A stretch of DNA of 32,000 nucleotides. Source: Candidatus Saccharimonadota bacterium (GTDB lineage Bacteria > Patescibacteriota > Microgenomatia > UBA1406 > GWC2-37-13). Made by a program: the position numbers and the translations under genes. The DNA lies in contig CP066689.1 in assembly GCA_016432445.1 (NCBI GenBank), positions 960,001 through 992,000 of the forward strand, read 5' to 3'. Position 1 is the stretch's first letter. Each line of letters opens with the position of its first letter. Positions 14,324 to 31,164 of the stretch are shown here, one piece after another. The notes under the pieces are model-generated. The model was not told the DNA's origin. It made no database searches and saw nothing but the letters and a program-made list of their open reading frames with translations.

Positions 14324-14352
14324 TAGATCAACTCAAAATTTATGTTTCAATT

Positions 14353-14892: not shown

Positions 14893-14895
14893 TTA

Positions 14896-15010
14896 AATCC
14901 AAATGTCAAATTTCAAATTTCAAAAAAATCATTTGACATTTAAAATTTAGATTAAAATTTAGATTTTGGATTTGTTTTGGCATTTGTCATTTGGACTTTG
15001 GATTTATAGT
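14896..15010. repeat. heptamer arrays in inverted arrangement (AAATnCA units, then their complement)
   Basis: Forward units: aaatcca, aatgtca, aatttca, aatttca. Complement units: ggcattt, gtcattt, ggacttt, ggattta. Nested inverted pairs: AAATGTCAAAT (14901-14911) with ATTTGACATTT (14931-14941), and AAATCCAAA (14896-14904) with TTTGGATTT (14965-14973). Overlaps the 3' end of rpmB. Confidence 0.7.
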
Positions 15011-15254: not shown

Positions 15255-15267
15255 ATTATTAAAAAAT

Positions 15268-15347
15268 TAAAATGTCAAAATTCAAATACCAAATCAAATC
15301 CAAAATCCTAAAAATATTTGACATTTGTCATTTGAACTTTGGATTTA
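15268..15347. repeat. heptamer arrays upstream of rpmB, same word family as 14896-15010
   Basis: Forward units: aaaatgt, caaaatt, caaatac, caaatca, aatccaa, aatccta. Complement units: ttgacat, ttgtcat, ttgaact, ttggatt. The 25-mer CATTTGTCATTTGAACTTTGGATTT (15322-15346) matches 14981-15005 at 24 of 25 positions as a direct repeat. Confidence 0.7.
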
Positions 15348-15399
15348 ATTTAAGATGATTTATGATATCATATAAGTACTTTAAAATCAATTTAAATTT

Positions 15400-16056
15400 A
15401 TGCTTATCGCTATTATTATTTCTGTATTGGTTTTGATTATCTCTGTTGTTGTTCACGAGTATTCCCATGCTAAAGCAGCCGATCACTTAGGTGATCCTAC
15501 AGCTAAACTTAATGGAAGATTAACCTTAAATCCGTTAGCTCACATTGATATTTTGGGCTCAATTATTTTACCGCTTTTTTTAATTATAACTCAGGCGGGT
15601 ATTATCTTTGGCTGGGCTAAACCAGTACCTATTGATTACTATAATTTTAGAAACCCTCGAAAGGACTCTGCTTTAGTATCTCTAGCTGGTCCAGGATCAA
15701 ACTTAAGTTTGGCTATTATTTGCTCCATATTGCTCAATCTGTTCATATTGTTTAAACTATCTTTTTTAATCACTATAGGTTCTCTTATTTTAATTCCTTT
15801 AATAAAAATTAATATTATACTTGGCGTCTTTAACCTTTTACCTATCCACCCTTTGGACGGATTTAAGATTGTTGAAGGCATTCTTCCCGCAGATAAAACA
15901 CAGGAATGGAAAGGACTAGAGAAATACGGGTTCATTTTTATTTTGCTCCTTCTTGTCCCCATAGGTAACTCCTCTTTATTAAACACCATCATTGGACCTG
16001 TAATAAACTTTTTATTCCGACTACTTCTTCCTCAAATAGGACTGGGAGTTATTTAA
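15400..16056 (+). CDS. M50-family (site-2 protease-like) zinc metalloprotease
   Basis: Polytopic 218-aa ORF with VVHEYSHAKAA (HExxH) and NLLPIHPLDG (the NxxPxxxLDG motif). Confidence 0.85.
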   Translation: MLIAIIISVLVLIISVVVHEYSHAKAADHLGDPTAKLNGRLTLNPLAHIDILGSIILPLFLIITQAGIIFGWAKPVPIDYYNFRNPRKDSALVSLAGPGSNLSLAIICSILLNLFILFKLSFLITIGSLILIPLIKINIILGVFNLLPIHPLDGFKIVEGILPADKTQEWKGLEKYGFIFILLLLVPIGNSSLLNTIIGPVINFLFRLLLPQIGLGVI

Positions 16057-16059
16057 AAG

Positions 16060-16689
16060 TTAAAGCGCTGGAGTAGCTGAGACTGTAGCGGTTGGGACAG
16101 CGCTGGTTGAAGCTGATTTTTGTTTACAGATTAACCAATCCCGGGCCGTACAACCTTTACCTATTTTTGTCTTAATTTTATTACAATCCGTTTCATCACA
16201 GGTTTGAACCGTTGATGCGTCATTTTGAGGGAGAACTAACGTAGACATAGGTGAAGGTCTAGTAATTGTTGTTGGCTTTGCCACAGGAGCTTGAGTTTTT
16301 TCTGTTCCTTTGGTCGTAAATGTCCAAGGCACCCCGCCATTATCATATTTTTGATCAGCAATTCTTATCTGGAAATAATAAGTTGTAGCCGGAGAGAGAA
16401 GAGTCAGATCAACAATATGGCTTTTGGTTTTTTGAGGTTCCGGAGCAAAAAAATTAAGGGCCGTCGGAGAGGTACCATATTCAATAACTCCTTGTGTTTC
16501 CTCACCTGTAGACCAGGACACTTTAACGCTGTTTTGAGATAAATCTGATACAATGACATCACGCGGAGCTATATCGCTTGCTTTCGTAAGAGTTCCTTGA
16601 AGTAGCTTAAAACCCATAACCAGCACAAAAATGCCTATAACACTACCTATTATTATTGAAGCTATCCTAACTAAAGTATGCTGATTCAT
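16060..16689 (-). CDS. membrane-anchored fibronectin type III domain protein
   Basis: N-terminal TM helix IASIIIGSVIGIFVLVMGF. FN3-like VSDLSQNSVKVSWSTGEETQGVIEYGTSP...ATTYYFQIRI. The start overlaps the upstream stop (ATGA). Confidence 0.75.
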   Translation of the reverse strand: MNQHTLVRIASIIIGSVIGIFVLVMGFKLLQGTLTKASDIAPRDVIVSDLSQNSVKVSWSTGEETQGVIEYGTSPTALNFFAPEPQKTKSHIVDLTLLSPATTYYFQIRIADQKYDNGGVPWTFTTKGTEKTQAPVAKPTTITRPSPMSTLVLPQNDASTVQTCDETDCNKIKTKIGKGCTARDWLICKQKSASTSAVPTATVSATPAL

Positions 16690-17387
16690 AAGAGTTTAAA
16701 TCCTATGCCAATTAAAAATAATAATGTTCCAGCCGCAATAAAAATGGGGAGATTATTTTCTGTGATTCCTGATCTTGGCAGTTGAGAGACTGCCGTTGGA
16801 GCGGCAGTAGCATAAGTATTTGATGAAGAGGCAAGTGTGGGAGTGGCTGTTGGGTTGGAAGTATTACCGGCGCCTACAGTAACTGCTGATGTTCCATTAC
16901 TGGCGCAAAGGATAAGATCAGTACCGTTTAGATCATTTTTGGTAATATGTGAACCAGTGGCTGGACCGCAGGTAAAGCTCAAGTTAGCAGTACCATTTTT
17001 CAAGGCCTTAAATACGACTGTCGCTAAAGTACCGCTTCCTGACTTTGAAGTGGCAACATCATCAACTAACCCAACTACATAGACTGTACCGCCGGTCATA
17101 GTAGGATTGGTGACGGTTGTGAATATTGTACCGTTAGTGACTCCTTGTGGCTCGAGAACTGTTTGATCGTAAGTTATCACTGCGTCAACGCCTAAGTATT
17201 GATCGGTTGAAAGAGCATCAATTTTAACAGCTACCTCAAATGTTTGACCGGCAGTAGTAGTAACTGCGGCTGGATCAAACTTTAGTGCAGCCGCAAAAAC
17301 ATTTTTAAGCTGTGGTACCACAAAAAAAACTGCCAATAAGATTACTATCTGGAAAAAAATCCTTTTTATTTGCATTACATCTATCAT
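16686..17387 (-). CDS. cohesin-domain surface protein with an LPxSG-type C-terminal sorting signal
   Basis: Signal/TM segment, then the cohesin-like LKFDPAAVTTTAGQTFEVAVKIDAL...GVDAVITYDQTVLEP...TLATVVFKALKNGTANLSF. LPRSG (codons 16781-16767) is followed by a hydrophobic helix and a K-containing tail. Confidence 0.75.
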   Translation of the reverse strand: MIDVMQIKRIFFQIVILLAVFFVVPQLKNVFAAALKFDPAAVTTTAGQTFEVAVKIDALSTDQYLGVDAVITYDQTVLEPQGVTNGTIFTTVTNPTMTGGTVYVVGLVDDVATSKSGSGTLATVVFKALKNGTANLSFTCGPATGSHITKNDLNGTDLILCASNGTSAVTVGAGNTSNPTATPTLASSSNTYATAAPTAVSQLPRSGITENNLPIFIAAGTLLFLIGIGFKLL

Positions 17388-17420
17388 ATTCCATATTGTT
17401 TTTTATGTCAAACGTAACGA

Positions 17421-17476
17421 AATTAGATCTTAGATATTCGATATTAGATCTTCGAAAATCGAACATCAAATGTCGA
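17421..17476. repeat. TCTTAGA-type heptamer array
   Basis: Eight 7-nt units: aattaga, tcttaga, tattcga, tattaga, tcttcga, aaatcga, acatcaa, atgtcga. Same unit family as 4757-4798. Confidence 0.7.
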
Positions 17477-17483
17477 TGATCTC

Positions 17484-17918
17484 TTAAAGTACTCCTGCTT
17501 TCTTTACCATCTTAAGGTGTTCATGAAACATTGAGTGAAGAGGCACAGGCAGATTATCCAGTGAAAACCAGCCGATATTTTCTATTTTGTCAGGGTCCCC
17601 TATCTTTACTTTTTCAGGAATAACTTCGGCGGCAAAAATAACCGCTACCCAATGAGTTTTCTCTTTTCCATTTTTTCTTAAAACATTATTGACAGCAATA
17701 AACTTAAGATCAACTACCTCACTGCAGTACTCTTCCCTAATCTCGCGCCTAACAGCCTCCTCAAAAGTCTCCCCCACTCTCATCGCGCCTCCTCCCGGAT
17801 CCCAGACGCCAACCTCATCCCGGCAGTTCTTGCTTCTTTTATTCATCAAAATTTTACCTTTACCGTCATGGCAGTAAAATACGCAGCCAACGCCGATATA
17901 ATCAACCCCTTTTTTCAT
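17484..17918 (-). CDS. NUDIX hydrolase
   Basis: Nudix box GGGAMRVGETFEEAVRREIREEYCSEV in a 144-aa ORF. Confidence 0.9.
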   Translation of the reverse strand: MKKGVDYIGVGCVFYCHDGKGKILMNKRSKNCRDEVGVWDPGGGAMRVGETFEEAVRREIREEYCSEVVDLKFIAVNNVLRKNGKEKTHWVAVIFAAEVIPEKVKIGDPDKIENIGWFSLDNLPVPLHSMFHEHLKMVKKAGVL

Positions 17919-17945
17919 TTGAAGAAATTATAACAAAAGATTATA

Positions 17946-18692
17946 TTATATTTTTTTTGATGAAAGAAACTCCAGTACTCTATCTGTAGCAAAATGGATA
18001 CCTTCTAGTGGGTTTTCTGTTTTCATATAGTTAGAAACGAAATTAGCAAAGAAGGTATCTCCGGCTCCAAGTGTATTTTTAGTTTTTATCACTCGTTGTG
18101 TCTCAAAGCTATATTTTTTTCCAAAAACAAAGAGATCACAGCCTTTTGTTCCTTTAGTAATTAGCAAGATTTTCTCTTTTTGGATTTCTATAAAAGATTT
18201 AGGAATATAAGATATTTCATAATCTCCTGCCTTAAGGCAAAAAATAGATTGCTGAATTCCTTTTCCAGGGCGCCAATGTTTCTTTTTCCCAAAATCTTGG
18301 CCGTCACGGACATATCCTTGTATATCCAAAAATATTTGCCCTTTGTAATCCCCTATGCCATCTAAACTAAACTCATTCAATAGAGATGATATTAATAAAT
18401 AAGGAGCATCTATGTTTGAAAAATCAATTTTAAACGGAACTGGAACTGCTGTAATTTTCCCGAATTCATCATTTTCCTTAATAAGGATTTCTGTTTTAAG
18501 CTTAAAAACATGTTCAAGTTTAAAATCTACAGCAGCTTTCTTTAAAGCTTGCGTTATGTAATAGGCTGGGCCTCCCTTTTGTTTACTTAAGAAATTACCT
18601 TTTTCGTTATAAAGATAATCTTTGGCAAACGATGAAAAAATGGAGATATTATTTGTTTTTTTCATATTTGCTTTTAGCAAGTTGAATAGCAA
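17946..18692 (-). CDS. PfkB/ribokinase-family sugar or nucleoside kinase
   Basis: C-terminal NTLGAGDTFFANFVS (the GAGD anion-hole motif), and ILLITKGTKGCDLF before it. The start is uncertain (alternative ATG at 18665). Overlaps the upstream gene. Confidence 0.7.
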   Translation of the reverse strand: MLFNLLKANMKKTNNISIFSSFAKDYLYNEKGNFLSKQKGGPAYYITQALKKAAVDFKLEHVFKLKTEILIKENDEFGKITAVPVPFKIDFSNIDAPYLLISSLLNEFSLDGIGDYKGQIFLDIQGYVRDGQDFGKKKHWRPGKGIQQSIFCLKAGDYEISYIPKSFIEIQKEKILLITKGTKGCDLFVFGKKYSFETQRVIKTKNTLGAGDTFFANFVSNYMKTENPLEGIHFATDRVLEFLSSKKI

Positions 18693-19191
18693 ATGTTACT
18701 GCTTCTTCAGGATTTTTTGCCTCTTCAATTTTAAATCTTTTCCTATTATCTAAATATTGGCTGGCTAGTTTTTCACTCCACCCTCCGCTTCCTTTTAAAA
18801 CAACCACCGGAATATTCGCTTGATAGGCTATAGCTATTTCCGTTAACGTCCCTGACCCTCCACTAATGGCAATAATAACATCACAGCTTAAAACTAAAAC
18901 CAGTTCTCTACCGCCTCCCCTTTCCAAACCGCTGGCAATTACGACATCCACATTCTTTTCAACTATATCCATTCCTTTTCCATAAGTAACTCCTACTGTA
19001 GTTCCGTTAGCCTTTTTGGCTCCACGGCAAGCCGCAGAAGATAAAGAATCGCAATCTTTCTCTGCCCCAAACAAAAGCACGGCTTGATTTTTAGCTACCC
19101 AATAGCCTACTTCCTCTGCTAATTTTTCTATTTTTTTGGAATAGTTTAAATCAGCGCAAGAACCCATTACTCCTATCTGTATTTTTCTCAT
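18649..19191 (-). CDS. TIGR00725 / LOG-SLOG-like Rossmann protein (putative nucleotide N-glycosidase family)
   Basis: IQIGVMGS...AVLLFGA...AACRGAKKANGTTVGV...DVIIAISGGSGTLTEIAIAYQANIPVVVL matches the lysine-decarboxylase-like/LOG fold family. Confidence 0.8.
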   Translation of the reverse strand: MRKIQIGVMGSCADLNYSKKIEKLAEEVGYWVAKNQAVLLFGAEKDCDSLSSAACRGAKKANGTTVGVTYGKGMDIVEKNVDVVIASGLERGGGRELVLVLSCDVIIAISGGSGTLTEIAIAYQANIPVVVLKGSGGWSEKLASQYLDNRKRFKIEEAKNPEEAVTFAIQLAKSKYEKNK

Positions 19192-19208
19192 ATTTTGAAT
19201 TATAACAA

Positions 19209-20777
19209 CTACCTAATTAATAATTCTAAATCCTTTGGATCTTTCACGAGTAAAGTTTCCATTCCTAACTGTTGCGCCGGGTCGATATCGGTGGTCACCT
19301 GATCTCCTATAGAGATAATATTTTCAGGCTGGTACCGGCCGGCTAAAATTAAAAAGATCTCATCCTTCCTACCGTATTGCTCACCTGTGTATAAAGACTC
19401 AAAACAATCTTTTACTCTCAAAAATTTCAAAACTTGTTGAGCCCAAATTCTTGGGGCTGAAGTAAGCAAAACTAACTTTCTTTTTGGATTTTTTTCCTGA
19501 AGTTGCCTAATAGTATTCACGGCTGTTTCAAAATTTTGCACGATCCCTTCTGGATCGATATCCCAAACGACATTAAAGTAATCTGATCTTGTAATCCCAT
19601 ACCGGTTAGCTAAATATCTGCTAATCCCTATAGGGTCATTTAATCCTTGCCGTAAAATCATCTCTGCCGATTCTTCGTCACATACTTCTGTCATTATTAT
19701 AAACGCTTTTGCATTCCTTAATATTTCTTTTTCCAACTTAGATCCTTGGAAGCCATTATTAACACCATCGAGCTGATACAAAGTCCCATCCATATCGAAA
19801 ATTGCTACTTTTCTTTCTTGCTCTTCCTTAACGATCCTCAAACATCTATCTAGATAGTCAGTCACTCTCTCGTTAATGGAAACAGGAATTGTTTTTGAAA
19901 TATTTGTTGGTAAAGGGAAACCTGCCTTGACCAGCTCTTTGAATGTCAAACCGTTGGAACCGGTCGAAATTTCATATGCTTTTACCAGCTGACTAAAAGA
20001 TTTTATCATCTGTTGACTAGCATCAAAGAACCCTGGATTTTGATCTAAACTTGCACCGCAGCCATCACTCCAAGGATAAAGATAAGGTACAGAAGTAGTC
20101 ACTTTATTAGTTTTACTTGATGCCAGTTTTTTTCCTCCCAACGGACTAAAGTCTCTAATATCAATCCACTCGTATAAATTATCTATAGGTTCTGCAATAT
20201 CTGCATCAAATTTATCCATTGGCACTGACATATTGCCAATAAAACCAATAACTTTTCCTACATTAAGTTTTATTCCGTTATCAGAAGCTAAACGTAAAAA
20301 CTCCTCAACCGTACCTCCGGAAAATAATCCATCGTCAACAAGCAGGACTTTTTTTTGTGATATATCAGGAATTTTTATCCTCAGTTTAGCTATTTGACTC
20401 TCAAATGATTCATTCCCCTGCCGTGGCACTCTTTGACCATCAATAGAACGACATAAACTGAATCTGAAAAACCTATCTTCATACTCCTTTTCTTTTTCCA
20501 AACTTCCTAACAAAAACCTATCAAGGCAAACGCAGATCGTGTCAGAATCCCGTTTTAAAATTGGTTCCACCTTCTCTCTTAAACGGGATTCCATCTCTTC
20601 TTCGTAAAACCTAGCAACTTCTACGCTAGGATTTAGAAATTGAGAAAGAGCTGTCTCAACTTCGTCAAAATAAACTCTGACAGCATTGCTAAAACCGTCT
20701 TTCGATAAATCTAAACCTTTATTAATTTGAGAAAATAATCCGACTGTGTCTTGTGTAATAATATATTTTTCTGGCAT
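19209..20777 (-). CDS. fusion protein: type I phosphoribosyltransferase-like N-terminal half plus HAD-hydrolase C-terminal half
   Basis: KKVLLVDDGLFSGGTVEEF is a PRPP-binding loop. VAIFDMDGTLY is HAD motif I. LVLLTSAP is motif II-like. ISIGDQVTTDI is motif IV-like. Confidence 0.75.
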   Translation of the reverse strand: MPEKYIITQDTVGLFSQINKGLDLSKDGFSNAVRVYFDEVETALSQFLNPSVEVARFYEEEMESRLREKVEPILKRDSDTICVCLDRFLLGSLEKEKEYEDRFFRFSLCRSIDGQRVPRQGNESFESQIAKLRIKIPDISQKKVLLVDDGLFSGGTVEEFLRLASDNGIKLNVGKVIGFIGNMSVPMDKFDADIAEPIDNLYEWIDIRDFSPLGGKKLASSKTNKVTTSVPYLYPWSDGCGASLDQNPGFFDASQQMIKSFSQLVKAYEISTGSNGLTFKELVKAGFPLPTNISKTIPVSINERVTDYLDRCLRIVKEEQERKVAIFDMDGTLYQLDGVNNGFQGSKLEKEILRNAKAFIIMTEVCDEESAEMILRQGLNDPIGISRYLANRYGITRSDYFNVVWDIDPEGIVQNFETAVNTIRQLQEKNPKRKLVLLTSAPRIWAQQVLKFLRVKDCFESLYTGEQYGRKDEIFLILAGRYQPENIISIGDQVTTDIDPAQQLGMETLLVKDPKDLELLIR

Positions 20778-20929
20778 ATTGTTTAAAATAATTTTTAACC
20801 CACAAAAAACCCCGCCTTAAGCGGGGTTGTAAGTTTAAATAAATAACTAAGATTACCCCGCTGGAGCGAGGTTATGATGAACAATCTTTGAAGTTTGTAA
20901 TGTTAGACTTTTCATATTAACGTGTTAAT
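20778..20929 (-). promoter_or_regulatory. ~145-nt leader with tandem near-identical hairpins (terminator/antiterminator candidate)
   Basis: Minus-strand hairpin 1: AACCUCGC-ucca-GCGGGGUA (20873-20854, one G-U). Hairpin 2: AACCCCGC-uuaag-GCGGGGUU (20828-20808) plus a U-run. The 3' arm of hairpin 1 is perfectly complementary to the 5' arm of hairpin 2. Confidence 0.5.
20802..20828 (-). terminator. intrinsic terminator located upstream of the operon start codon
   Basis: 8-bp G+C-rich stem (20828-20821 / 20815-20808), 5-nt loop, then a U-run (plus-strand A-run 20804-20809). Only ~25 nt before ATG 20777. Confidence 0.6.
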
Positions 20930-20931
20930 AT
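20914..20931. promoter_or_regulatory. 18-bp palindrome ATATTAAC-GT-GTTAATAT, putative operator
   Basis: Perfect 8-bp arms. Abuts or overlaps the -10 box and start region of the minus-strand operon promoter, in the divergent intergenic region shared with the TrpR-like gene. Confidence 0.4.
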
Positions 20932-20958
20932 GATAACATACAGATATTTAACTGTCAA
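20930..20958 (-). promoter_or_regulatory. sigma70-like promoter of the nucleotide-centric operon
   Basis: Minus strand: TTGACA (20958-20953), 17-nt spacer, TATCAT (20935-20930). Confidence 0.55.
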
Positions 20959-20973
20959 TAGTTATTTAATGAA

Positions 20974-20981
20974 TGTATAAT
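20974..20981 (+). promoter_or_regulatory. extended -10 box TGTATAAT, leaderless layout
   Basis: TATAAT at 20976-20981, 6 nt, ATG 20988. Confidence 0.5.
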
Positions 20982-20987
20982 TTAAGT

Positions 20988-21317
20988 ATGAAGACTAAAG
21001 AGAACGTAAATACAAAATTTACTAAAACGGAATCCAGCTCTATTAAAAATAGTAAAGAAAGATTATTATTTAGAGCTCTTCTTGCGCAAAAAAATGAACA
21101 GGAAATGGCTGATTTATTAAGGGATCTTTTAACTTTACCTGAAATAGAAGAATTCTCTAACCGATTGGAAATCGCCAGGCAATTACGTGAAGGTCATTCT
21201 TACTTAAATGTTGCCCATAAAGTCGGCACCTCCACCACTACAGTTACTCGAGTTGCCCACTGGCTGTTTAAAGGCTGTGGCGGCTATTACCGCACGTTAA
21301 AGAAACTTATCAAATAA
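20988..21317 (+). CDS. TrpR/YerC-YecD family DNA-binding protein (second paralog)
   Basis: LLRDLLTLPEIEEFSNRLEIARQLREGHSYLNVAHKVGTSTTTVTRVAHWL parallels the 455-718 product. Start set at ATG 20988; the track's ATG 20973 lies upstream of the -10 box. Confidence 0.85.
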   Translation: MKTKENVNTKFTKTESSSIKNSKERLLFRALLAQKNEQEMADLLRDLLTLPEIEEFSNRLEIARQLREGHSYLNVAHKVGTSTTTVTRVAHWLFKGCGGYYRTLKKLIK

Positions 21318-21322
21318 TCAAC

Positions 21323-21931
21323 TTACTTAACATCAACCGTTATCTCAACTCCATTCACAGTTCCCAATACATCATTATTTTTATCATCAATTAAATTTGA
21401 ATCTTTTTTACTGCCGGGCAAAAATTCAATCTCAAAACTTGCTTTACCGGATTTTAATGCCTTAAATGTCAGTTCGGAAATAACCGTATTTTGAAAAGTT
21501 ACAGTAGAGGTGACACTTATTTTTTTTATACCAGTTAAGCTAAGTTTGCCATTATCATTTTGGGCAAAAACCTGAAAATCACTAAGCAAATTTTTTTGAC
21601 TTACATAACTTACAACGCTGGGATCATATTTAACAACTACATCATAACCGGTGATAGAACTGTTACTGGAATCAGCTGAAACATTAAGATAAATTGTTTC
21701 TCCAGCAACTAAAGGTTTTTTCGATGGATTAGGCAATAATGTTAAAGAGCCTTTGACAAGAGCAATTGAAGGCGCAACAGAAGGAGCAATACTTGTTGAA
21801 ACCGCTCCTTCATTTTTTACTAAGTTTTTCTTGTATATGAAAAAGGCTACGGCTATTAATAAAATAACTAGCAGAATAGGAAAAATTATTACAATCGGGA
21901 ATGGTTTTTTGGTTTCAGTTTGATTTTCCAT
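21323..21931 (-). CDS. membrane-anchored cohesin-like domain protein
   Basis: N-terminal TM helix PFPIVIIFPILLVILLIAVAFFIY. Cohesin-like ITGYDVVVKYDPSVVSYVS...VISELTFKALKSGKASFEIEF. Confidence 0.7.
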   Translation of the reverse strand: MENQTETKKPFPIVIIFPILLVILLIAVAFFIYKKNLVKNEGAVSTSIAPSVAPSIALVKGSLTLLPNPSKKPLVAGETIYLNVSADSSNSSITGYDVVVKYDPSVVSYVSQKNLLSDFQVFAQNDNGKLSLTGIKKISVTSTVTFQNTVISELTFKALKSGKASFEIEFLPGSKKDSNLIDDKNNDVLGTVNGVEITVDVK

Positions 21932-21954
21932 ATAATTTTAGTAAAAAAAATAAT

Positions 21955-23142
21955 TTACTCTCCTTCATCAACTTTAATAGATAAAGCACTAATAATTAAA
22001 GAGTAATCAGCAGAGTTAATTATGCCGTCAAGATTAACATCAGATGAGTTTAAGATATTAATATCGCTTTTGCCTAAATTGTTCCTGATAAGAGACAAGT
22101 CGTTAGAGTTTACAACCCCATCCTGACCTCCCTCTCCCGGCAAATCTCCTACAAATAGTAAGACACCAATTAAATTTAAATTATTTTCTCCAGGTACTAA
22201 ATTAATAATATTTCCTTTATCGCATTGATAAATCCCAGGTGACGTTTCTTTAGGTTCTAACTCACATATTTTCTTTTGCGTATGTTTTGGCCCTTTTACT
22301 AATAAATAGTATCCTCCACCTGCTAGAGCATTAAATGATGTCGTCCCACTCCAAACACCATTGTTGTCTGAAGTAAATTCAACAGGGTTTCCAATGACAT
22401 TGGTGACAGAACTTCCGCCTAATGCTACTTTAACTACCATTTTATTGAACTGATCTTCCGGTTTGCTATTTATCCCCTGAAATTTAAGCTTTAAGTTTAG
22501 CTTAATATTACCGTTCATGGGCGTAGTAGTTAATAAAGACTGAGCATTGATATTGGCACCTCCGCCTTCAGCTACGGGTACTTCTGAAAGATTATAATCT
22601 GCATTTATTTTATAAAATACATCTCCGCTTGGACTGTGAGTAATTATTGATGGATCATAGGAATTAGACACAAAAGTCAGCGTAATAACCTCTGCTTCCT
22701 CCGTTTTTGTAAGAATCTGACCCTCAGATTTTTGAATCTCCCCTTGAACATAAACAGCCCCCCACTCATTAATGACTGCTAAATTAGCTTTTGTATCACC
22801 TAAACCATTACTTACCACTCCTAGTTTATACTCAATATCCTTTAACTGAACTTTTGCTTTGTCAAAGTTTACTTTAAAAGAGTAGCCTCTGGTAGTAATA
22901 TCTATTGAAGGTTTTGCTTTTACTACGACTGTAAACTCTTGTTTAGGCGGAGCAGTTATTATCACTGGCGTAAATGATAAAACTACTGATTCTCCTGAAG
23001 CCTTCGTTGTTTTTTGAACATCTTTTTCCAAAAAAACATACCTCATCATCACCAATAAAACAGATAAACTGAAAAATAAAATAACTCCCAGTTTAATATA
23101 TATTCCCTTGTGGCTTTTTTTAAAGTTTTGATCGTCTTCCAT
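21955..23142 (-). CDS. membrane-anchored protein with a cohesin-like domain and a C-terminal dockerin
   Basis: TM helix near the N-terminus. Cohesin-like FTVVVKAKP...YSFKVNFDKAKVQLKDIEYK...VITLTFVS. C-terminal GDLPGEGGQDGVVNSNDLSLIRNNL...SDVNLDGIINSADYSLIISAL is a duplicated Ca-loop dockerin pattern. Confidence 0.8.
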   Translation of the reverse strand: MEDDQNFKKSHKGIYIKLGVILFFSLSVLLVMMRYVFLEKDVQKTTKASGESVVLSFTPVIITAPPKQEFTVVVKAKPSIDITTRGYSFKVNFDKAKVQLKDIEYKLGVVSNGLGDTKANLAVINEWGAVYVQGEIQKSEGQILTKTEEAEVITLTFVSNSYDPSIITHSPSGDVFYKINADYNLSEVPVAEGGGANINAQSLLTTTPMNGNIKLNLKLKFQGINSKPEDQFNKMVVKVALGGSSVTNVIGNPVEFTSDNNGVWSGTTSFNALAGGGYYLLVKGPKHTQKKICELEPKETSPGIYQCDKGNIINLVPGENNLNLIGVLLFVGDLPGEGGQDGVVNSNDLSLIRNNLGKSDINILNSSDVNLDGIINSADYSLIISALSIKVDEGE

Positions 23143-23143
23143 T

Positions 23144-24154
23144 TTATGGTCTTAATGAACGAATAATTACGGAGCGGTCATTCACTCCCACCTCACCATC
23201 TCCATTGAAATCAACGTTAACTGTCTGAGGAATCTTTCCTCCATTGACTACTGAAACATAATAAAAATAATCAAGATCATTTACTCTACCATTTCCGTCA
23301 GCGTCACCTCTAGTTCGTAAAGATGATCTGCACCATCCTGTTTTTTGCTCGTTAGTAGGCGTCGAGTTAAACATCGAGACAGAAAGAACGCACTTTATCG
23401 GATTGGAATAATTAACATCTGAATATTTATCAAATAAGCAAGCGCTCGTACACGTTCCTTCAGTTAAACTTGGGGAATTACAACCGCAGCTTGGATTTGG
23501 AGTTGGAGAAGGAGTTGCTGTAGCTGTTGGAGTAGGTGTCCTTGTAGGTGTCGGCATTGAAGTTGGCGTTGGCGTTGGAGTTGGAGAAGGAGTTGCTGTA
23601 GCTGTTGGAGTAGATGTCGGCGTTGAAGTTGACGAAGGAGTTGGAGTTGGAACAGAAGCACTGCAGTTAACAGTTTTAACACCTAAACGTGGATCTAAAT
23701 GATTACCGGCAGAATCATAATCTTGTCTTACACCAGAAGAATTTACATTGATAGCATAAGCTGAAACGTTTCTTTGTCTTCCGGTAAAAAAATAAGCTTT
23801 AGGGTTATATGTCCTTGATCCTTCAGTAAACGTGGTTGGTATGCTTTGAGGATTAAAGCTAAAGTTTCTATTAGTTGTCCATGCCGAACCTATAAATATA
23901 TTACCAAGAGGAATATCAGCATTAGGAGTACCAGCTGCACCTTGCTCCATCCAAAAATCAATCTGAATATTTGTAAGTGGCGAATCATCATCCACCACAT
24001 TTGAACCGATTAAAGCCGTGCAGGATGCCGCATCAAAACTACCCGTTGGTAAAGAAGAATTTGTCTGGGCGAAGCTTGGTTTGGGAATTAAAAATACTAA
24101 AGCAGATAAAAAAAATAAAATAAATAACTTTTCCCGGATACTGAGATTAAACAT
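23144..24154 (-). CDS. secreted protein with a PT linker and a C-terminal dockerin
   Basis: Signal peptide ...LVFLIPKPSFAQT. PT-rich linker. GDADGNGRVNDLDYFYYVS...VDFNGDGEVGVNDRSVIIRSL dockerin repeats. Confidence 0.8.
   Translation of the reverse strand: MFNLSIREKLFILFFLSALVFLIPKPSFAQTNSSLPTGSFDAASCTALIGSNVVDDDSPLTNIQIDFWMEQGAAGTPNADIPLGNIFIGSAWTTNRNFSFNPQSIPTTFTEGSRTYNPKAYFFTGRQRNVSAYAINVNSSGVRQDYDSAGNHLDPRLGVKTVNCSASVPTPTPSSTSTPTSTPTATATPSPTPTPTPTSMPTPTRTPTPTATATPSPTPNPSCGCNSPSLTEGTCTSACLFDKYSDVNYSNPIKCVLSVSMFNSTPTNEQKTGWCRSSLRTRGDADGNGRVNDLDYFYYVSVVNGGKIPQTVNVDFNGDGEVGVNDRSVIIRSLRP
23499..23612. repeat. 78-bp-period tandem duplication inside the PT linker
   Basis: The exact 36-mer GGAGTTGGAGAAGGAGTTGCTGTAGCTGTTGGAGTA occurs at 23499-23534 and again at 23577-23612. 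Confidence 0.8.
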
Positions 24155-24228
24155 ATAAGATAAAAATAATACAAAATGAATTTTTTGTCAAATTTACTTA
24201 TAAAAATTTTAACTTTTATATTCGTGAT

Positions 24229-25707
24229 TTACAGTTCGTCAACTTTAATTGAGAGAGCGGTAATTATTAAAGAATAATCTTGAGAATTAATAATATCATC
24301 AAGATTCAAGTCTGCAATCATAAGCTTTGCCGCTTCTGTTTTCCCTAAATTATTTCTGACAAGAGATAAATCATAAGAGTTTGCAATACCATCTTGACCT
24401 CCCTCTCCCGGCAAATCACCTGTCAGCTGATAAACGCCTGAAAAATCAAGATTGTTCTCGCCTTCATTCAAAACAACTGCCGCATTAGAACATCGGTAAA
24501 GCCCAGCCTGCGGCTCCTGCGGCCGTGATTCACATATCTTTTTCTGAATGTGTTTTGGTCCTTTTATTAATAAATAGTATTTATACTCAAAACCTGTGCG
24601 GGCATTAAAATTAGCTTTCCCTGAGTAAGTGCCGTCACTGTTGGGAACAAATGTTACCGGCTTGACTGGAGATCCGTCTACTGATCCTCCGGCTAAAGTA
24701 ACTTGAACTCTCATGCGGTTAAAAAGCGATGCCGGCTGTCTGTTTATTCCCTGAAACTTCAGTTTTATATTTAAAATAACGCTCTTTGACTGAGTTGGGG
24801 TAAGAGTAGGCGTTAAGGTTGGAGTTGGTGTATTTGTTGAGGTTGTAGTGGCTGTCGGTACAGGTGTCAAGGTCAAAGTTATAGTGGGAGTTAAACTCGG
24901 TGAAATGGCAGAACTTTGATACTGCAGACATTTAAATCCATTATCAAATCCATAACACCATCCCGGCTGATTATTAACTCCTAATGGACAATCGGCATTA
25001 CTGCGGCAAACCGCCCCATTGCATAGAGGAACCCATCTAAAGCGAGTATCTGATGTCGTTGGGATAGGCGCTGTGCCACAGTATCCCACAATCGGCGTAG
25101 CTGTTGGAACAGGTGTTCTTGTAGGTGTCGGCGTTGAAGTTGCAGTAGGAATAGTTGTAGAGGAAGGAATTGTTGGAGAAGGTGAAGGAGATACTACCGG
25201 CTGGCGGATATAATAAAAACTTGATCCGGCAACATAATTTTGCGAGATGTCCCATTGATTCTTGCATTGATTTCCCCCAACTAATGCATCCCCCCTCATA
25301 GCTCCAACTGCTATTCTATCGCCGCCTTGAGGTAAAGGAATTGAGTCATCAGCCGGCTGATTGGGGTCACATAAAAAAATGGCTGTGTTTCCGCTCCATC
25401 TTGAGAAAGGGCAGTTTTTTGGCCAGTTATTTTCACCAACAAAATAGCCGCAGATAATGTCCGGATAGCTGTTTGAACTAGCTTCTACCCGGCATTCAAA
25501 ACGCTGATCTTGCCCCAAAATTTCTGTTGTTACATTACTTGAGACACTATTTATACCACTAATACAAACACTAGTACTTGCTTTTGATTGATAGGTATTT
25601 TTATTTTTTTGAAGTTCGTATGAAAGTATAATGATAGCCATGCTGAAAAGGATGATTAATCCTATAATAAGAAACGGCGATATTTTTCTTTTGATTGATT
25701 CTTCCAT
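24229..25707 (-). CDS. membrane-anchored Cys-rich protein with PT linkers and a C-terminal dockerin; its C-terminal ~190 aa are paralogous to 21955-23142
   Basis: LNIKLKFQGINRQP...YYLLIKGPKHIQKKICE...GDLPGEGGQDGIANSYDLSLVRNNL...ADLNLDDIINSQDYSLIITALSIKVDE aligns by eye with the C-terminus of the 395-aa protein. Start set at ATG 25707; the track uses TTG 25713. Confidence 0.8.
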   Translation of the reverse strand: MEESIKRKISPFLIIGLIILFSMAIIILSYELQKNKNTYQSKASTSVCISGINSVSSNVTTEILGQDQRFECRVEASSNSYPDIICGYFVGENNWPKNCPFSRWSGNTAIFLCDPNQPADDSIPLPQGGDRIAVGAMRGDALVGGNQCKNQWDISQNYVAGSSFYYIRQPVVSPSPSPTIPSSTTIPTATSTPTPTRTPVPTATPIVGYCGTAPIPTTSDTRFRWVPLCNGAVCRSNADCPLGVNNQPGWCYGFDNGFKCLQYQSSAISPSLTPTITLTLTPVPTATTTSTNTPTPTLTPTLTPTQSKSVILNIKLKFQGINRQPASLFNRMRVQVTLAGGSVDGSPVKPVTFVPNSDGTYSGKANFNARTGFEYKYYLLIKGPKHIQKKICESRPQEPQAGLYRCSNAAVVLNEGENNLDFSGVYQLTGDLPGEGGQDGIANSYDLSLVRNNLGKTEAAKLMIADLNLDDIINSQDYSLIITALSIKVDEL

Positions 25708-25718
25708 AAACAATTTTC

Positions 25719-25747
25719 ATTGTAAACGATTTATTCCGTGTTGACAA
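25719..25747 (-). promoter_or_regulatory. candidate promoter of the cohesin/dockerin operon
   Basis: Minus strand: TTGTCA (25747-25742), 17-nt spacer, TACAAT (25724-25719), 11 nt, ATG 25707. Confidence 0.45.
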
Positions 25748-25769
25748 ATAAAAACTACTTTAATAGAAT
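25741..25769 (+). promoter_or_regulatory. sigma70-like promoter of the HTH gene
   Basis: TTGACA (25741-25746), 17-nt spacer, TAGAAT (25764-25769), 15 nt, ATG 25785. Confidence 0.55.
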
Positions 25770-25784: not shown

Positions 25785-26000
25785 ATGTCAGACTCTAATA
25801 AACCAGTAAAAATAGCATTAAATGATCTTCCTGATCTTTTAACAATAAGAGAAGTAGCTACTCTTCTTCGTGTATCAACTCTTACTGTCAAGCGCTGGGG
25901 TAAAAAAGGCAAACTGCCGGCTATCCGTATTAACTCGCGAGGCGACCGCCGCTACAAAAAAGATGTCGTCTTAAGACTTCTTGGCGTTAACCCTGAATGA
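25785..26000 (+). CDS. MerR/excisionase-type helix-turn-helix DNA-binding protein
   Basis: 71 aa. LLTIREVATLLRVSTLTVKRWGKKGKLPAIRINSRGDRRYKKDVV is the classic HTH_17/excisionase-family pattern. Confidence 0.85.
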   Translation: MSDSNKPVKIALNDLPDLLTIREVATLLRVSTLTVKRWGKKGKLPAIRINSRGDRRYKKDVVLRLLGVNPE

Positions 26001-26087: not shown

Positions 26088-28181
26088 ATGGGAAGAGTAG
26101 AGTTTCACCTGTTTCACCGAGAAAAAACACCAACTCCTGAACTAGTTGCGGCTTTTCCTCAGCATGTAGGCTTGCAGGGACGTTTATTGCTTGGCGGAGA
26201 AGCTTTAAATCCTGTCAAAAAAGATCTGTACGAGGTGACAGAACGTACCCTAGGCAAGCTTGCCAGCCATGATTATAAACCTCTTAATAATGCTTCAACC
26301 GGAGAAAGAACAGATTATTGGGATGGAAAAGAAGGTAACATTTTCTCTGCACAAAAAAGAGCCTGGGTAGAAAACACTGTCTCAATTTTCCAGAATACAA
26401 GAGGTTTTTTTGCCAATACGGATGAAGGTAAAAAATGGACTAAATTGTACAGACGCTTTGGAATTGAAACTTTAAACGTCAAATCTAACTCTATTGAGAA
26501 TTTTTACCATAAATACTTTACCGGTCCTTATAAACAGTCAGATATTAAAAGGTTTGTTTTTGATATTTTAGCTATTTACCGAGATCCTCAAAAAAAAACT
26601 CTTGACTATAAAAAACTGCAGGAAGATCTTGAAAGCATTCAGTGGATTGCCAATATTTTTGGCGCAACTTCAGCCGAGATTATCGGCCAGCTCATTGATG
26701 CTGAGGTTAAACTTCAAACTCAGCCTAAGGATTTGATTAAAAAAGTCAATGAACAAGTAAAAACAAATGGAACCAAAGTATTAAGGATTAATCATCTTAC
26801 TCAAGATGAAGAAAGACTCCTAAGGTTCCTCTGGGAAGGTAAAGAAGAAAAACTTCCTGGGTTTAAACCATCACCTGAGTGGCAGGATCCTATCCGTCCC
26901 CGCCAACCCACTCCAACTACAGAGGATATCAATAGATTTAAAATCAAGATGAAACATGTGGATAATAAAGCAACAGGAGTAAGAGATTTTCCTGACAGCC
27001 GGGAGATTGAAGGATTAACAGATCCTTTAGTTGTAGCTTATAACTTAAAACGCTTATACCCCGCAAGATATGCTCAAGATGTTAATGCCCTTGCTGAAAA
27101 TGTGCGTCAGGAACATGTTCATTTTCGAGGCTGGCTTGAGAAAATCCATCTTCCTCCTAATTATTATGTCTCAATGATGACAAAAAACTTGAGAGAATAC
27201 GCTCATTTTTTGGAAAAGACATATCGCATAACTATTCCCGAAATTAATAATTTAAAAGTGGTTCCTTTGTATGGAAAATCTGCGGAGTTATGGAATCCGA
27301 CTGGTACTGCAGGCGGTACTTTAGCTTTTGTAAACCCTCGCTACCCTGTCATATTTTTAGACTTTGATGTTATTAATCAACATGCTTTTTATCTTGGAGA
27401 AAAAAATATAGAGGAAATGACGGCCAAAGAGTTTGGTAAGATTATAGAAAAACTATTAAACGAAATCCAGCCTCATGAGTATACTCATCTTTTGTCAGAT
27501 ATTGCCAACTGGCATCTTATCAAAGATGAAGGCACACCTCAGGAGCAAACAACTGATATTGTTATGGGTAAACTAGGCTTATTGTTATTAAAACCTACTC
27601 CTCCTAAGGTAAGCCGCGAGGAAAGATTAAACTTGAAAGAAAGAGGACGAGCTTTAATGGAAGCTCTAACAGTAGAGTTGACAGAACAGTGGCTACGTCA
27701 TGTCAAAAACCGTTCTCTTGCCTTGCCTATTTATACTCGAGAAAGACAGTTATTAAACACATTGATCAATCAGATTTCCAAAGAGCGGAATGTTTCAAGG
27801 GAAGAGGTATTAGCCAAGTTTGTTGAGGCGTACTTTAAACCTCACGGCTTCAAACACTTAGCCGATTACTTATCTGGCAAAAAAATTGATAGAACCCAGT
27901 CTAAATTTGAATATGATCAAAATAGGAAACATTTTATGCAGATTATTTATGCTCTTATAGAATATGAGTCACAAGAAGCTGAAAGAAGCGGTATTTACCC
28001 TGATTACTCAATCACAAAAAATTATATCACCGGCTCGCTTTCCTTATCTCAAAAAGCACAGATTGAGCTCTTCTTAAGAGGCTACTCAAGAGCCGCATCC
28101 GACGTCCAGCTAACCCCTCAAGCTATTGAAGAGATAAGAAATGTTATAAGCGGTAAAAAACAAGAAAAGCTTGCCGCCTAG
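26088..28181 (+). CDS. orphan 697-aa protein: shared N-terminal module plus an HExxH zincin-like C-terminal region
   Basis: Long ORF with no signal peptide. Residues ~27-210 are paralogous to the next gene. HEYTH sits at codons 27474-27488 after a beta-rich segment, with acidic helices downstream (MEALTVELTEQW). Confidence 0.85.
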   Translation: MGRVEFHLFHREKTPTPELVAAFPQHVGLQGRLLLGGEALNPVKKDLYEVTERTLGKLASHDYKPLNNASTGERTDYWDGKEGNIFSAQKRAWVENTVSIFQNTRGFFANTDEGKKWTKLYRRFGIETLNVKSNSIENFYHKYFTGPYKQSDIKRFVFDILAIYRDPQKKTLDYKKLQEDLESIQWIANIFGATSAEIIGQLIDAEVKLQTQPKDLIKKVNEQVKTNGTKVLRINHLTQDEERLLRFLWEGKEEKLPGFKPSPEWQDPIRPRQPTPTTEDINRFKIKMKHVDNKATGVRDFPDSREIEGLTDPLVVAYNLKRLYPARYAQDVNALAENVRQEHVHFRGWLEKIHLPPNYYVSMMTKNLREYAHFLEKTYRITIPEINNLKVVPLYGKSAELWNPTGTAGGTLAFVNPRYPVIFLDFDVINQHAFYLGEKNIEEMTAKEFGKIIEKLLNEIQPHEYTHLLSDIANWHLIKDEGTPQEQTTDIVMGKLGLLLLKPTPPKVSREERLNLKERGRALMEALTVELTEQWLRHVKNRSLALPIYTRERQLLNTLINQISKERNVSREEVLAKFVEAYFKPHGFKHLADYLSGKKIDRTQSKFEYDQNRKHFMQIIYALIEYESQEAERSGIYPDYSITKNYITGSLSLSQKAQIELFLRGYSRAASDVQLTPQAIEEIRNVISGKKQEKLAA

Positions 28182-28239: not shown

Positions 28240-30615
28240 ATGTCAGGAGAAAATCCACAGCCTGTTCCAATTGAAGGTGAAAAGAATCATGAACGTATTC
28301 TTCCTTATGAACCTTTAGTTGGACTGCAAGCAAGAATACTTTTGGGTGGTGAAAACATAAACTCAAAAAACCGGAGCCTTCCTGATCTAACTTTAGATCA
28401 AATAGATCAGTCAATGGCTACTCGAGAACAAACAACTTATCGATATTTAAGCAATTCTTCAACTCAAGAAAGAAAAGAATGGTGGAAAAAACAAGGAGTT
28501 GCCAAGTTTGATGAACGATTAAAAATTTGGGTTGATAAAACAACATCTGCTTTTCAAACAGGTAAAGACTACCTTAATCAAAGTGGTTGGAAAAATGCTC
28601 TAGGAAAAATTGGCATTAGCTCTGATACTTTCTCTCAACAGGATGCATTATCTCTTTATAATGAATTCTTTACTGGAGACAATAAACAATCGAAGACTAC
28701 TATTTTTATCTCTAAAGTTATTAACGCTTACTCTCAACGGGAAACTGATGGAAAAACGGTAAGTATTGATTATCAAGCCTTAAAAAAAGATCTTCCTGCT
28801 TTTCAATGGTTAGCTGGTATGTTTGGAGGATTAGGTAAAGAAGTTGTCGTTCAACTGATTGATGCTGAGGTAAAATCACGTATTCCTCAAGAAAAAGCAA
28901 CTTTAATTAATAGAGCTAATGAGAAAGAAAAAGTTAATAATCAGGCAGTAGCCAGACTTAATAGACTTAATGACAAAGAAGTTATCCTTGCAGATTACCT
29001 TTACAAAGGCAAAAGTACAGCAGATAACAATGATCATGGAGAAAATGACGGTAAAGACAACAAACGGCCTGAAGAAATAACCGAAACTGATCCTTATAAA
29101 ATAGCTTCTGTTTTGCTTGATTATGATACTGGTAAACCTAAAGATGTAAAGGTTGATCTCTCAAAAACCTTCCCACAATTCGTTGATAAAGTAAAACAAC
29201 ACATGGAAAAAGATTCTACTCTCTTTCCGTCTGGGAAAATACCTATGGTTTTATCAGATGTATCCCGCGCTATGATTGATAAAATTGCAGAGTCCGCCAA
29301 TAAAAAAAATAAAGAGCTGGGATTTGCTCTTCGTGGTGTACTATTAACCAGTGGAGATGAGAAAGATCATAAAAATGCTCTAGTAGCTGCTTTTGCTTCC
29401 CCTTCTATGGATTTTAAAGCCGCCGAGGCAGGAGTAACTCGAGTATCACCTGAGATTGAATCTCCTAATGCAGAAACTTTAGCTCAAAATACTAGTCTTG
29501 CCAGCTATTTCCAAGAACATGGAGAAACATCTAAAGGATTCCCTATTGCTAGTATTCATATACATTATGATGCTTTAGGTGAACGTTACCGCGCTAATCC
29601 TTCAGATACTGATTTCAATCAAGATATTCCTGATATTTTGAGAAAAAACAATCTCAAACAACATATCTGGGGCGTCGCCACAAAATCAGGAGGACAGCTT
29701 TATTTAAGAGTTTGGCTGAGTAAAAGAAAAGATGACGGCACTATCACCCACGAAGAAATACCTGTTGTTTTGCAATCGCAAATTGAAGGCAACAAACCTG
29801 AGCCTGAACCAGATGAAAATGATAAGCCTGAAACATCAACTGACCCATTTCCTCAACAAAGCGAAACCGAGAAAAAAATAACCGTAAGTCACCGCAAGAA
29901 TCTTGAAGCATCTCAAGCATTCATTAATAAACTTGACGAAGCTAAAGGAACAGCAATCCAAATAGTTGCTGACAATAAAGATCCCTCTAAAAATAGATGG
30001 CGAAATAAATATGGATTTGTATTTAGCCAAAATGGTTATTATGAAGTCGCAAGTATCGGTAATGTAAGAGAAAGATACGGATTACCTATGGCCATCGAAC
30101 ATTCAGGCAATCACGCAAAGCTCGTTTTAAAAATATTTAAAGATCAAGATCAATGGAAAATGATTTATTGGAATCCATATAATAGTGATGAATTAACTGG
30201 CGATCTTAATCGCGCGCCAATAAAAATTGAGACAATTGATGGATTAGAAAAAGTAACAGATTCTTCAACAGATGAAGAAGTAAAAGGAATACTAGAAGCT
30301 AATAATTTAGCGATTGATCGGGAAATTTTAGGAAAAATCATCAGTGACCCCAATTATAACTACGATCTTACTTTCGCTGATGATCGAAATCTTACTGATT
30401 CAGTAAAAGCCGCCAAATCAGGGTATCTACAACCTCATAGTGATGCCCAAAACTGTGTTGTTTTTTGCGTTTTTAATGCTGTCTTAAGAGCCGCAGCTAA
30501 ATGGCCTGAAGGAAAGTGTCCACCTGAGTTTGCAGAGTTTCAAAAAACCGGCCGGAAAAAATTTGAAGAAGATTTTGGCATCACCATAGCTACTAGAGAA
30601 CAACTCACTTCATAA
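28240..30615 (+). CDS. orphan 791-aa protein: shared N-terminal module plus a JAB/MPN+-like domain plus a CE-clan (Ulp1-like) Cys-protease-like domain
   Basis: Start at ATG 28240 places the conserved VGLQ at residue 27, exactly as in the upstream paralog. The track's GTG 28222 lies inside the promoter. The JAB-like and CE-clan motifs are detailed in the findings. Confidence 0.85.
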   Translation: MSGENPQPVPIEGEKNHERILPYEPLVGLQARILLGGENINSKNRSLPDLTLDQIDQSMATREQTTYRYLSNSSTQERKEWWKKQGVAKFDERLKIWVDKTTSAFQTGKDYLNQSGWKNALGKIGISSDTFSQQDALSLYNEFFTGDNKQSKTTIFISKVINAYSQRETDGKTVSIDYQALKKDLPAFQWLAGMFGGLGKEVVVQLIDAEVKSRIPQEKATLINRANEKEKVNNQAVARLNRLNDKEVILADYLYKGKSTADNNDHGENDGKDNKRPEEITETDPYKIASVLLDYDTGKPKDVKVDLSKTFPQFVDKVKQHMEKDSTLFPSGKIPMVLSDVSRAMIDKIAESANKKNKELGFALRGVLLTSGDEKDHKNALVAAFASPSMDFKAAEAGVTRVSPEIESPNAETLAQNTSLASYFQEHGETSKGFPIASIHIHYDALGERYRANPSDTDFNQDIPDILRKNNLKQHIWGVATKSGGQLYLRVWLSKRKDDGTITHEEIPVVLQSQIEGNKPEPEPDENDKPETSTDPFPQQSETEKKITVSHRKNLEASQAFINKLDEAKGTAIQIVADNKDPSKNRWRNKYGFVFSQNGYYEVASIGNVRERYGLPMAIEHSGNHAKLVLKIFKDQDQWKMIYWNPYNSDELTGDLNRAPIKIETIDGLEKVTDSSTDEEVKGILEANNLAIDREILGKIISDPNYNYDLTFADDRNLTDSVKAAKSGYLQPHSDAQNCVVFCVFNAVLRAAAKWPEGKCPPEFAEFQKTGRKKFEEDFGITIATREQLTS

Positions 30616-30666: not shown

Positions 30667-31164
30667 TTAGTTAAACTTTTCTTCAGGACTGGGAGGGACT
30701 GGGGCAGGAGGCGGAGGCGGAGGTGGAGCCATATCAACTGGATTAATGGAAACCGGCTCCTCTACTTTTTGAGCTGATTGGACTTGCCCTGAGCTTGCTT
30801 GCAGTGAGCCTGTCGAATCTGCCGAAGGGGTAACTGGCAAAAGATAGGCCGTGCGGAAGTTTAAAAGAACTGCGGCAATCTCTACGTCAAGATTAGGAAT
30901 TTTATCCATGAAAAATTTATTTAGCTCATCATCCGTCGGATTTTTATCCAAAAATTCATCAAGAGCAATCTGGTCTTTTTTAGACAGAAGATTTAAAAGA
31001 TGCAGGTTGATATCTTCATTTATTTGCTTTAAAAGTTCTTCTCTAACCAGATTTTTATTTTGATCGTTGACATGAGGATCTTTTCGATCGCGAATTAAAT
31101 CATCAACATAACTTAAAAGAGCCGCCTGATCCATCGCCGCCTTATCATTTGAATTGTTTTGCAT
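30667..31164 (-). CDS. hypothetical protein with a helical core resembling the Patescibacteria DUF5663 type and a poly-proline C-terminus
   Basis: 165-aa ORF. LSKKDQIALDEFLDKNPTDDELNKFFMDKIPNLDVEIAAVLLNFRTAYL. C-terminal MAPPPPPPPAPVPPSPEEKFN. Confidence 0.65.
   Translation of the reverse strand: MQNNSNDKAAMDQAALLSYVDDLIRDRKDPHVNDQNKNLVREELLKQINEDINLHLLNLLSKKDQIALDEFLDKNPTDDELNKFFMDKIPNLDVEIAAVLLNFRTAYLLPVTPSADSTGSLQASSGQVQSAQKVEEPVSINPVDMAPPPPPPPAPVPPSPEEKFN

Follow-up and report, generated by a model that had tools for sequence, protein, structure and literature searches.

The gene at positions 28240–30615 of a 32,000-nucleotide stretch from Candidatus Saccharimonadota bacterium (contig CP066689.1, positions 960,001 to 992,000; the whole stretch is referred to below as the window) encodes a protein made of an N-terminal domain (N-dom), a JAB module and a Cys/His module, in this order. 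Residues ~285–526 of this protein are likely to form a divergent, catalytically complete zinc-hydrolase of the JAMM/MPN+ type, used as an interchangeable payload cassette in modular proteins found in candidate phyla radiation (CPR) bacteria. Translation from the ATG start gives a product of 791 residues, identical to the database protein P0001, and an in-frame GTG upstream at 28222 would extend it to 797 residues. Residue numbers such as E365 and H446 follow the 797-residue form; in module numbering the conserved residues are E81, G88, H162, H164, P176, S177 and D180. The gene and all of its features described below lie on the forward strand.

The JAB/MPN+ module (29074–29799, aa 285–526) was defined by alignment, AlphaFold2 modelling and Foldseek comparison with the Protein Data Bank (PDB). 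Its signature begins with Glu365, the predicted general base (29314–29316), located directly before strand 2, and with Gly372 (29335–29337) on the E-x6-G strand. The predicted zinc ligands His446-x-His448 (29557–29565) stand at the C-terminal end of module strand 156–163. They are followed by the 12-residue spacer YDALGERYRANP (29566–29601), which is 7 residues long in the canonical motif and is modelled confidently here (block pLDDT ~97), and then by Ser461-x-x-Asp464 (29602–29613) at the N-terminus of module helix 178–191. An earlier note on this DNA had pointed to the same residues, and translation confirmed its reading exactly: KELGFALRG with the Glu codon at 29314–29316, HIH at 29557–29565, and PSDTD at 29599–29613 with the serine at 29602 and the second aspartate at 29611. 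The gap of about 80 residues that it gave between the glutamate and the first histidine is 81 residues, and the HxH-to-Ser spacing is indeed 12, with hhalign placing a 5-residue gap in the spacer. Taken alone, this motif is weak evidence. HxH-x(5–15)-SxxD occurred in 0.9% of shuffles of the 791-residue protein (0.1% with the canonical x7 spacing), and another relaxed HxH...SxxD match turned up at a different place when the window was translated in all six frames. The motif goes well beyond chance because it is conserved across the family alignment.

An exhaustive HMMER search run over 1.84 billion representatives recovered this family; it returned 268 relatives and split the protein into three modules (aa ~10–274, ~285–526 and ~543–797). 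The JAB module was present in 33 homologous segments from 32 of the 268 representatives, 24–41% identical to the query. Together with the query these segments made an alignment of 34 rows over 246 query positions, with a mean column identity of 37%. Only five of the 246 columns were invariant (E365, G372, H446, H448 and S461). D464 was conserved in 33 of the 34 rows and the proline before the serine (P176 in module numbering) in 32. The invariant columns thus correspond to JAMM residues and to the E-strand glycine. A spacer of 12 residues is typical of the family: it was found in 30 of the 34 members, the remaining four having 6, 7, 8 or 9 residues, and one of these shorter spacers has the canonical 7 residues and begins with HTHP. 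The module also carries a family-specific N-terminal helical extension of ~55 residues.

Other searches recovered few relatives. A word-indexed homologue search returned the query itself only, and none when the family alignment was used. Scans of genome contigs gave no match with the whole protein and a single locus, from Levyibacteriota, with a sub-alignment; scans of viral and metagenome contigs found no relatives. Relatives with a named source include MBA3724571.1 ('Candidatus Levybacteria') and MEK7571351.1 ('Patescibacteria group bacterium'), both annotated as hypothetical. As far as the literature was searched, the family has not been described before in CPR bacteria.

Structure prediction indicated that the module adopts a known fold. 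The AlphaFold2 model had a mean predicted local distance difference test score (pLDDT) of 94.9 and a predicted template modelling score (pTM) of 0.92, and the five models were concordant. In module numbering, the modelled elements are a strand (58–60), a helix (62–78), E81, two strands (83–93 and 100–110) and two helices, followed by a strand ending with HxH (156–163), the 12-residue loop, a helix starting with SxxD (178–191) and three strands. In the model, this order of elements is that of the MPN fold. Foldseek searches against the PDB agreed: all 32 matches at E ≤ 1e-3, and all 50 listed matches, were MPN/JAB proteins. The top match was BRCC36–KIAA0157 (BRCC36–Abraxas2; E = 1e-6, probability 1.0). 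The others included the BRCA1-A complex, Rpn11/Rpn8, CSN5/CSN6, eIF3f/h, Npl4, the Caldiarchaeum Rpn11 homologue and Mov34, with the bacterial Bil and Bub deubiquitinases (8tyx_B and 9ea4, ranks 44–45) and AMSH/Sst2 further down the list. Target-normalised template modelling (TM) scores reached 0.52–0.58 with compact MPN domains, namely Rpn11 (4owp_B), Mov34 (2o96), CSN6 (4qft) and the Bil deubiquitinase (8tyx_B). The canonical JAMM motif is ExnHxHx7Sx2D (PMC9313428), and the model showed the glutamate, HxH, serine and aspartate at the secondary-structure positions of the catalytic residues of Rpn11, AMSH and AfJAMM. The strand–helix–E..G element, HxH and SxxD described in the earlier note are thus placed in the predicted MPN fold as they are in JAMM enzymes.

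Profile alignment was carried out against four reference JAMM enzymes, each 100% identical to a PDB chain: Rpn11 (4ocl_B), AfJAMM (1oi0), AMSH-LP (7l97/2znr) and CSN5 (4f7o). In default local mode, hhalign aligned the HxH...SxxD segment alone (E = 0.023, probability 2%) and opened the 5-residue gap within the spacer. In global or low-mact mode the MPN core (29236–29733, aa 339–504) was colinear with residues 24–162 of yeast Rpn11 (P = 0.0016, probability 6%). The catalytic residues were in register, pairing E365 with E48, G372 with G55, H446/H448 with H109/H111, S461 with S119 and D464 with D122 of Rpn11. Aligning the family with the Rpn11 sequence alone was uninformative. When the 34 members were scanned singly against Pfam, one matched Prok-JAB (E = 0.013), probably the member with the x7 spacer. 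Collectively, the predicted fold, the invariant residues and the in-register alignment support the reading of this region as a JAB/MPN+ domain in which an insert separates HxH from SxxD. Membership in the superfamily is assigned on the fold and the invariant residues, not on hidden Markov model (HMM) scores.

The JAB module is one of several that follow the same N-terminal domain. N-dom is ~260 residues long (28249–29043, aa ~10–274) and is common to the paralogue encoded immediately upstream (N-dom at 26100–26860 on the forward strand, 30% identical to the query N-dom) and to most of the 268 representatives, including at least 135 of the best 150. It has near-invariant residues at E18, R32, S74, R78, W97 and F195-G196, and it matched no Pfam family and no relative among PDB sequences. 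About three quarters of the N-domains carry R-L-L-[LI]-G-G at aa ~32–37, a motif that resembles the ubiquitin C-terminal tail or a double-glycine leader. Its first glycine is kept in 77% and its second in less than 70%. An obligatory cleavage site at this 'RLLLGG' was considered and rejected as a firm claim, the Gly-Gly not being invariant.

Architectures were counted in the 150 best representatives and the paralogue (151 proteins), scoring unassigned regions of more than 200 residues as extra. The largest class was N-dom followed by an unassigned region (50 proteins), and 14 proteins consisted of N-dom only. N-dom was joined to a HExxH module in 27 proteins (and in 3 more with an extra region), to the JAB module in 17 (2 more, making 19) and to the Cys/His module in 10 (9 more). 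The JAB module stood alone in 6 proteins (3 more with an extra region). The rarer arrangements were N-HEXXH-JAB (2 proteins), N-JAB-JAB, N-JAB followed by two Cys/His modules, and N-JAB followed by one Cys/His module, which is the query (1 each). Pfam scans of 62 long members also identified HopA1-like (4), PP2C/SpoIIE, ABC1 kinase-like and metallophosphatase modules. In a Levyibacteriota locus, a 1260-residue N-dom protein with two PP2C-like domains adjoins a JAB-JAB protein. The modules are joined like beads by low-complexity, Pro/Glu-rich linkers. The JAB module is thus an exchangeable payload cassette. Because N-JAB is the commonest architecture that contains it, a role limited to releasing the other modules is unlikely. 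No signal peptide or transmembrane segment was identified in this family of soluble proteins from CPR bacteria of the Microgenomates/Levybacteria type; the Kyte–Doolittle hydropathy in a 19-residue window exceeded 1.6 in only 1 of the 151 proteins.

By analogy with JAMM enzymes, Zn2+ would be held by H446, H448 and D464, a zinc-bound water would be activated by E365, and the tetrahedral intermediate would be stabilised by S461, leading to hydrolysis of a peptide or isopeptide bond. Substrate access or specificity is probably governed by the 12-residue loop between HxH and the serine, together with the N-terminal extension of 55 residues.

Nine loci were compared for the context in which this putative enzyme works: the window, L004, L005, L006, L009, L010, L011, L012 and L013. 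None of them contains a gene for a ubiquitin-like protein (Ubl, β-grasp) or for an E1-like or E2-like enzyme. The JAB domain does not belong to a Ubl operon, and the absence of such genes reported in the earlier note for the surroundings of this gene holds across all nine loci. A same-strand downstream 'immunity' gene was likewise absent from all nine. At least four related genomes of the Levybacteria type (the window, L006, L012 and L009) carry a JAB-bearing N-dom gene as a positional orthologue, as judged from their common gene order: L006 and L012 share with the window the succession GT2, DsbB, Pdf, L28, M50, cohesin, dockerins and then the N-dom gene(s), and L009 matches the window on the far side of the locus. 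The modules attached to these positional orthologues differ between genomes. Between the window and the syntenic loci, the N-dom proteins are 34–41% identical, compared with 52–70% for the flanking orthologues. In L010, four genes (7292–9250) for pilins of a type IV secretion system (T4SS; PF18895) are directly followed by three tandem N-dom genes (10001–17320), one of which is N-HEXXH-JAB. This array is beside N-dom genes in one locus of the nine and is the only hint of an export route.

The JAB module is most likely a zinc-dependent peptidase or isopeptidase payload, possibly directed at a host. It would cleave a target against which the producer needs no protection; a protein or conjugate of the host cell is plausible. 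That the target lies outside the producer is favoured by four features: no immunity gene is present, the proteins diverge rapidly, their modules are shuffled, and the partner domains are of effector type. A bolder version holds that the N-dom proteins are a set of translocated effectors specific to CPR bacteria, whose JAB cassette, alone or with the Cys/His module, strips Ubl or isopeptide conjugates in the host cell; we regard it as speculative and, as a complete account, rather unlikely. Export would then occur via the relaxase-less T4SS or the VirB2-like pilin arrays of Patescibacteria, both reportedly abundant in Microgenomatia (PMC12102498), and a JAB cassette could, for example, disarm a host defence pathway based on Ubl conjugation.

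Several results weigh against the assignment of the module as a JAMM payload. The query gave no significant match in Pfam (E ≤ 10), NCBIfam, PADLOC or PHROGs, and no JAB chain was found when PDB sequences were searched with the family HMM or with phmmer. The hhalign statistics are weak (P = 0.002–0.03, probability 2–6%), and the HxH-to-Ser spacing departs from the canonical x7. Query-normalised TM scores were just 0.30–0.43 with a high root-mean-square deviation; these low scores are explained by the 55-residue N-terminal extension and the inserts. The case for export is indirect, consisting of the absent immunity gene, the shuffling of modules and one locus with T4SS pilins. The earlier note had also held that the lack of a JAB-family HMM hit would overturn its reading. 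Pfam returned none for the query, but this is too strict a test for so divergent a family, and the structural result overrides it.

Among the alternatives, a JAB fold acting on nucleic acid or another non-peptide substrate, as proposed for RadC, Tox-JAB-1 and Tox-JAB-2, is improbable but the best of them. The JAB domains of toxin cassettes are divergent, lack the residues of the Ubl-tail tunnel and may be nucleases (Zhang et al. 2012, PMC3482391), and the domain described here is also a divergent cassette outside a Ubl context. However, its nearest structures are all MPN domains of ubiquitin or Ubl pathways, with no RadC-type entry among the 50 listed matches. Scans against all of Pfam, toxin-JAB models included, gave no match to those models, and the co-occurring HExxH and Cys/His modules look peptidase-like.

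Slightly less probable still is a processing protease that acts in cis, cutting the Pro/Glu-rich linkers or the N-terminal 'RLLLGG' to free the other modules. Low-complexity linkers do string the modules together, the R-L-L-[LI]-G-G of about three quarters of the N-domains resembles a ubiquitin tail, and releasing peptidases are common in polymorphic toxins (PMC3482391). Yet the JAB is the sole module after N-dom in most JAB-bearing members, most N-dom proteins contain no JAB at all, and the glycines of 'RLLLGG' vary. A housekeeping role, in which the JAMM would mature or recycle a Ubl or sulphur carrier of the cell itself in the manner of Mec+/CysO, QbsD or HvJAMM1/SAMP, is very improbable: although prokaryotic JAMM proteins most commonly act in this way, the nine loci contain no ThiS/MoaD-like, E1-like or E2-like gene, the domain is fused into a fast-diverging multi-module protein, and the query has no Prok-JAB HMM match. 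A chance motif or an inactive MPN- scaffold is effectively refuted, for although the relaxed motif occurs in ~1% of shuffled proteins of like size and composition and the query lacks an HMM match, the motif residues are invariant or nearly so across the 34 members, MPN- proteins lack these residues, and the predicted fold is that of MPN domains.

The JAMM peptidase or isopeptidase cassette proposed here can be compared with several known systems. The best structural matches of the module are the eukaryotic and archaeal MPN+ deubiquitinases. With Rpn11, CSN5, BRCC36, AMSH/AMSH-LP and the Caldiarchaeum Rpn11 homologue it shares the MPN fold and the equivalent positions of the glutamate, HxH, serine and aspartate, and it has a helical insert that follows strand 3 and precedes the HxH strand, where Ins-1 is located (PMC9313428). 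Unlike these enzymes, it has a spacer of 12 residues instead of 7 and the additional ~55-residue N-terminal extension, and it sits within a multi-module bacterial protein. Sequence similarity to them is not significant, and neither an MPN- partner nor a ubiquitin or Ubl context is evident. The module has the catalytic set of the Ubl-linked prokaryotic JABs (Prok-JAB PF14464, AfJAMM, CBASS Cap3, Bil and Bub), but those adjoin Ubl, E1 or E2 genes, which the nine loci lack.

A further likeness is to Tox-JAB-1 and Tox-JAB-2, where a divergent JAB is also an exchangeable cassette behind a conserved N-terminal region, encoded in fast-evolving arrays of paralogous genes (PMC3482391). The proteins described here differ from them in having no RHS repeat, LXG or other known trafficking domain (Pfam found none in N-dom) and no match to the Pfam toxin-JAB models. 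No immunity gene lies downstream, the next gene being convergent both here and in L006. The JAB of this family combines with other putative peptidase modules instead of being in every case the one C-terminal toxin. In phage lambda, the tail-tip protein K consists of a JAB/MPN domain followed by an NlpC/P60 Cys-peptidase domain. The query resembles it in having a JAB and then a Cys/His domain in one polypeptide, but its Cys/His module has no detectable kinship to NlpC/P60, and there is neither a phage context nor a PHROG match.

The JAMM/MPN+ superfamily itself is known. What is new is an unannotated clade of it, restricted to CPR bacteria, that occurs as a cassette in a new family of modular proteins. 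The clade extends the superfamily to members with a 12-residue spacer in the metal site, which current HMM libraries miss. Little is known of the means by which CPR/Patescibacteria exploit or manipulate their hosts as parasites, and effector candidates are few because most CPR proteins are unannotated. Within a large family labelled 'hypothetical', a defined enzyme can now be named, with a predicted complete JAMM site in an MPN domain. In this family a common N-terminal domain is followed by modules of protease-, phosphatase- or kinase-like character. If the effector reading were true, the JAB cassette would be the first deconjugating effector from an episymbiotic ultra-small bacterium.

The Cys/His module of the query (29848–30612, aa 543–797) has conserved His631, Asn/Asp651, Gln737 and Cys745. 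In the family consensus, the cysteine is part of an 'NC' motif at the N-terminus of a helix and the histidine starts a strand; the module is found in one to three tandem copies in ~30 relatives. Its AlphaFold2 model was confident (pLDDT 91.5). Foldseek identified no relative (best E = 0.46 in the PDB and 0.15 in BFVD), and Pfam scans of 29 members gave no match. Assignment to CE-clan (Ulp1-like) or permuted NlpC/P60 peptidases was rejected for want of structural or HMM support. The only trace was a local similarity to staphopain (1y4h) at its Gln/Cys and His motifs, which was not significant (E = 0.21). The module may represent a new fold of Cys-hydrolase or a permuted version of the papain-like fold.

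The upstream paralogue (26088–28181, forward strand, 697 aa) combines N-dom with a HExxH module of ~410 residues, whose motif reads HEYTH and starts at 27474. The HExxH motif was kept in all 33 homologous modules, and Pfam did not recognise the module. This module is probably a zinc metalloprotease cassette.

Both N-dom genes belong to a co-directional trio headed by a 71-residue HTH_17/MerR-like gene (25785–26000, forward strand). No other gene of the locus is as well conserved (84% identity with the L006 counterpart), and N-dom genes follow it in four contexts (the window with L001; L005; L006-8; L009), which makes it a candidate for a dedicated regulator. A strong promoter-like site, TTGACA-17-TAGAAT (25741–25769, forward strand), lies just upstream of it with 11 of 12 consensus matches; judged by consensus match alone, it suggests a three-gene unit. 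Directly downstream of the JAB-bearing gene is a convergent gene of 165 residues (30667–31164, reverse strand) with a C-terminal poly-proline tract, PPPPPPPAPVPPSPE. It has no family match and is 67% identical to a 138-residue gene at the same position in L006. Giant genes of 1650 to >2400 residues lie convergent to or beyond the N-dom genes in four relatives (L006 13044–20459, L009 2480–9250, L010 17842–22799 and L012 11425–16377); they gave no confident domain match.

The window has a G+C content of 37.6% and also encodes YchF, a peptide deformylase, DsbB, an M50 peptidase and a cohesin/dockerin cluster. The latter (16060–25713, reverse strand) consists of genes with cohesin, dockerin and fn3/purple-acid-phosphatase-N domains and is also kept in L006 and L012; in this genome of CPR type, it looks like a surface assembly of the cellulosome kind. 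Between two cohesin-type genes of the window is a block of ~3.9 kb (17484–21317) that is absent from the syntenic L006 and L012. It encodes a NUDIX protein, a PfkB-like kinase fragment, a SLOG/LDcluster4 protein, a PRTase-HAD fusion and a Trp-repressor-like helix-turn-helix protein, a gene set that looks nucleotide-centred.

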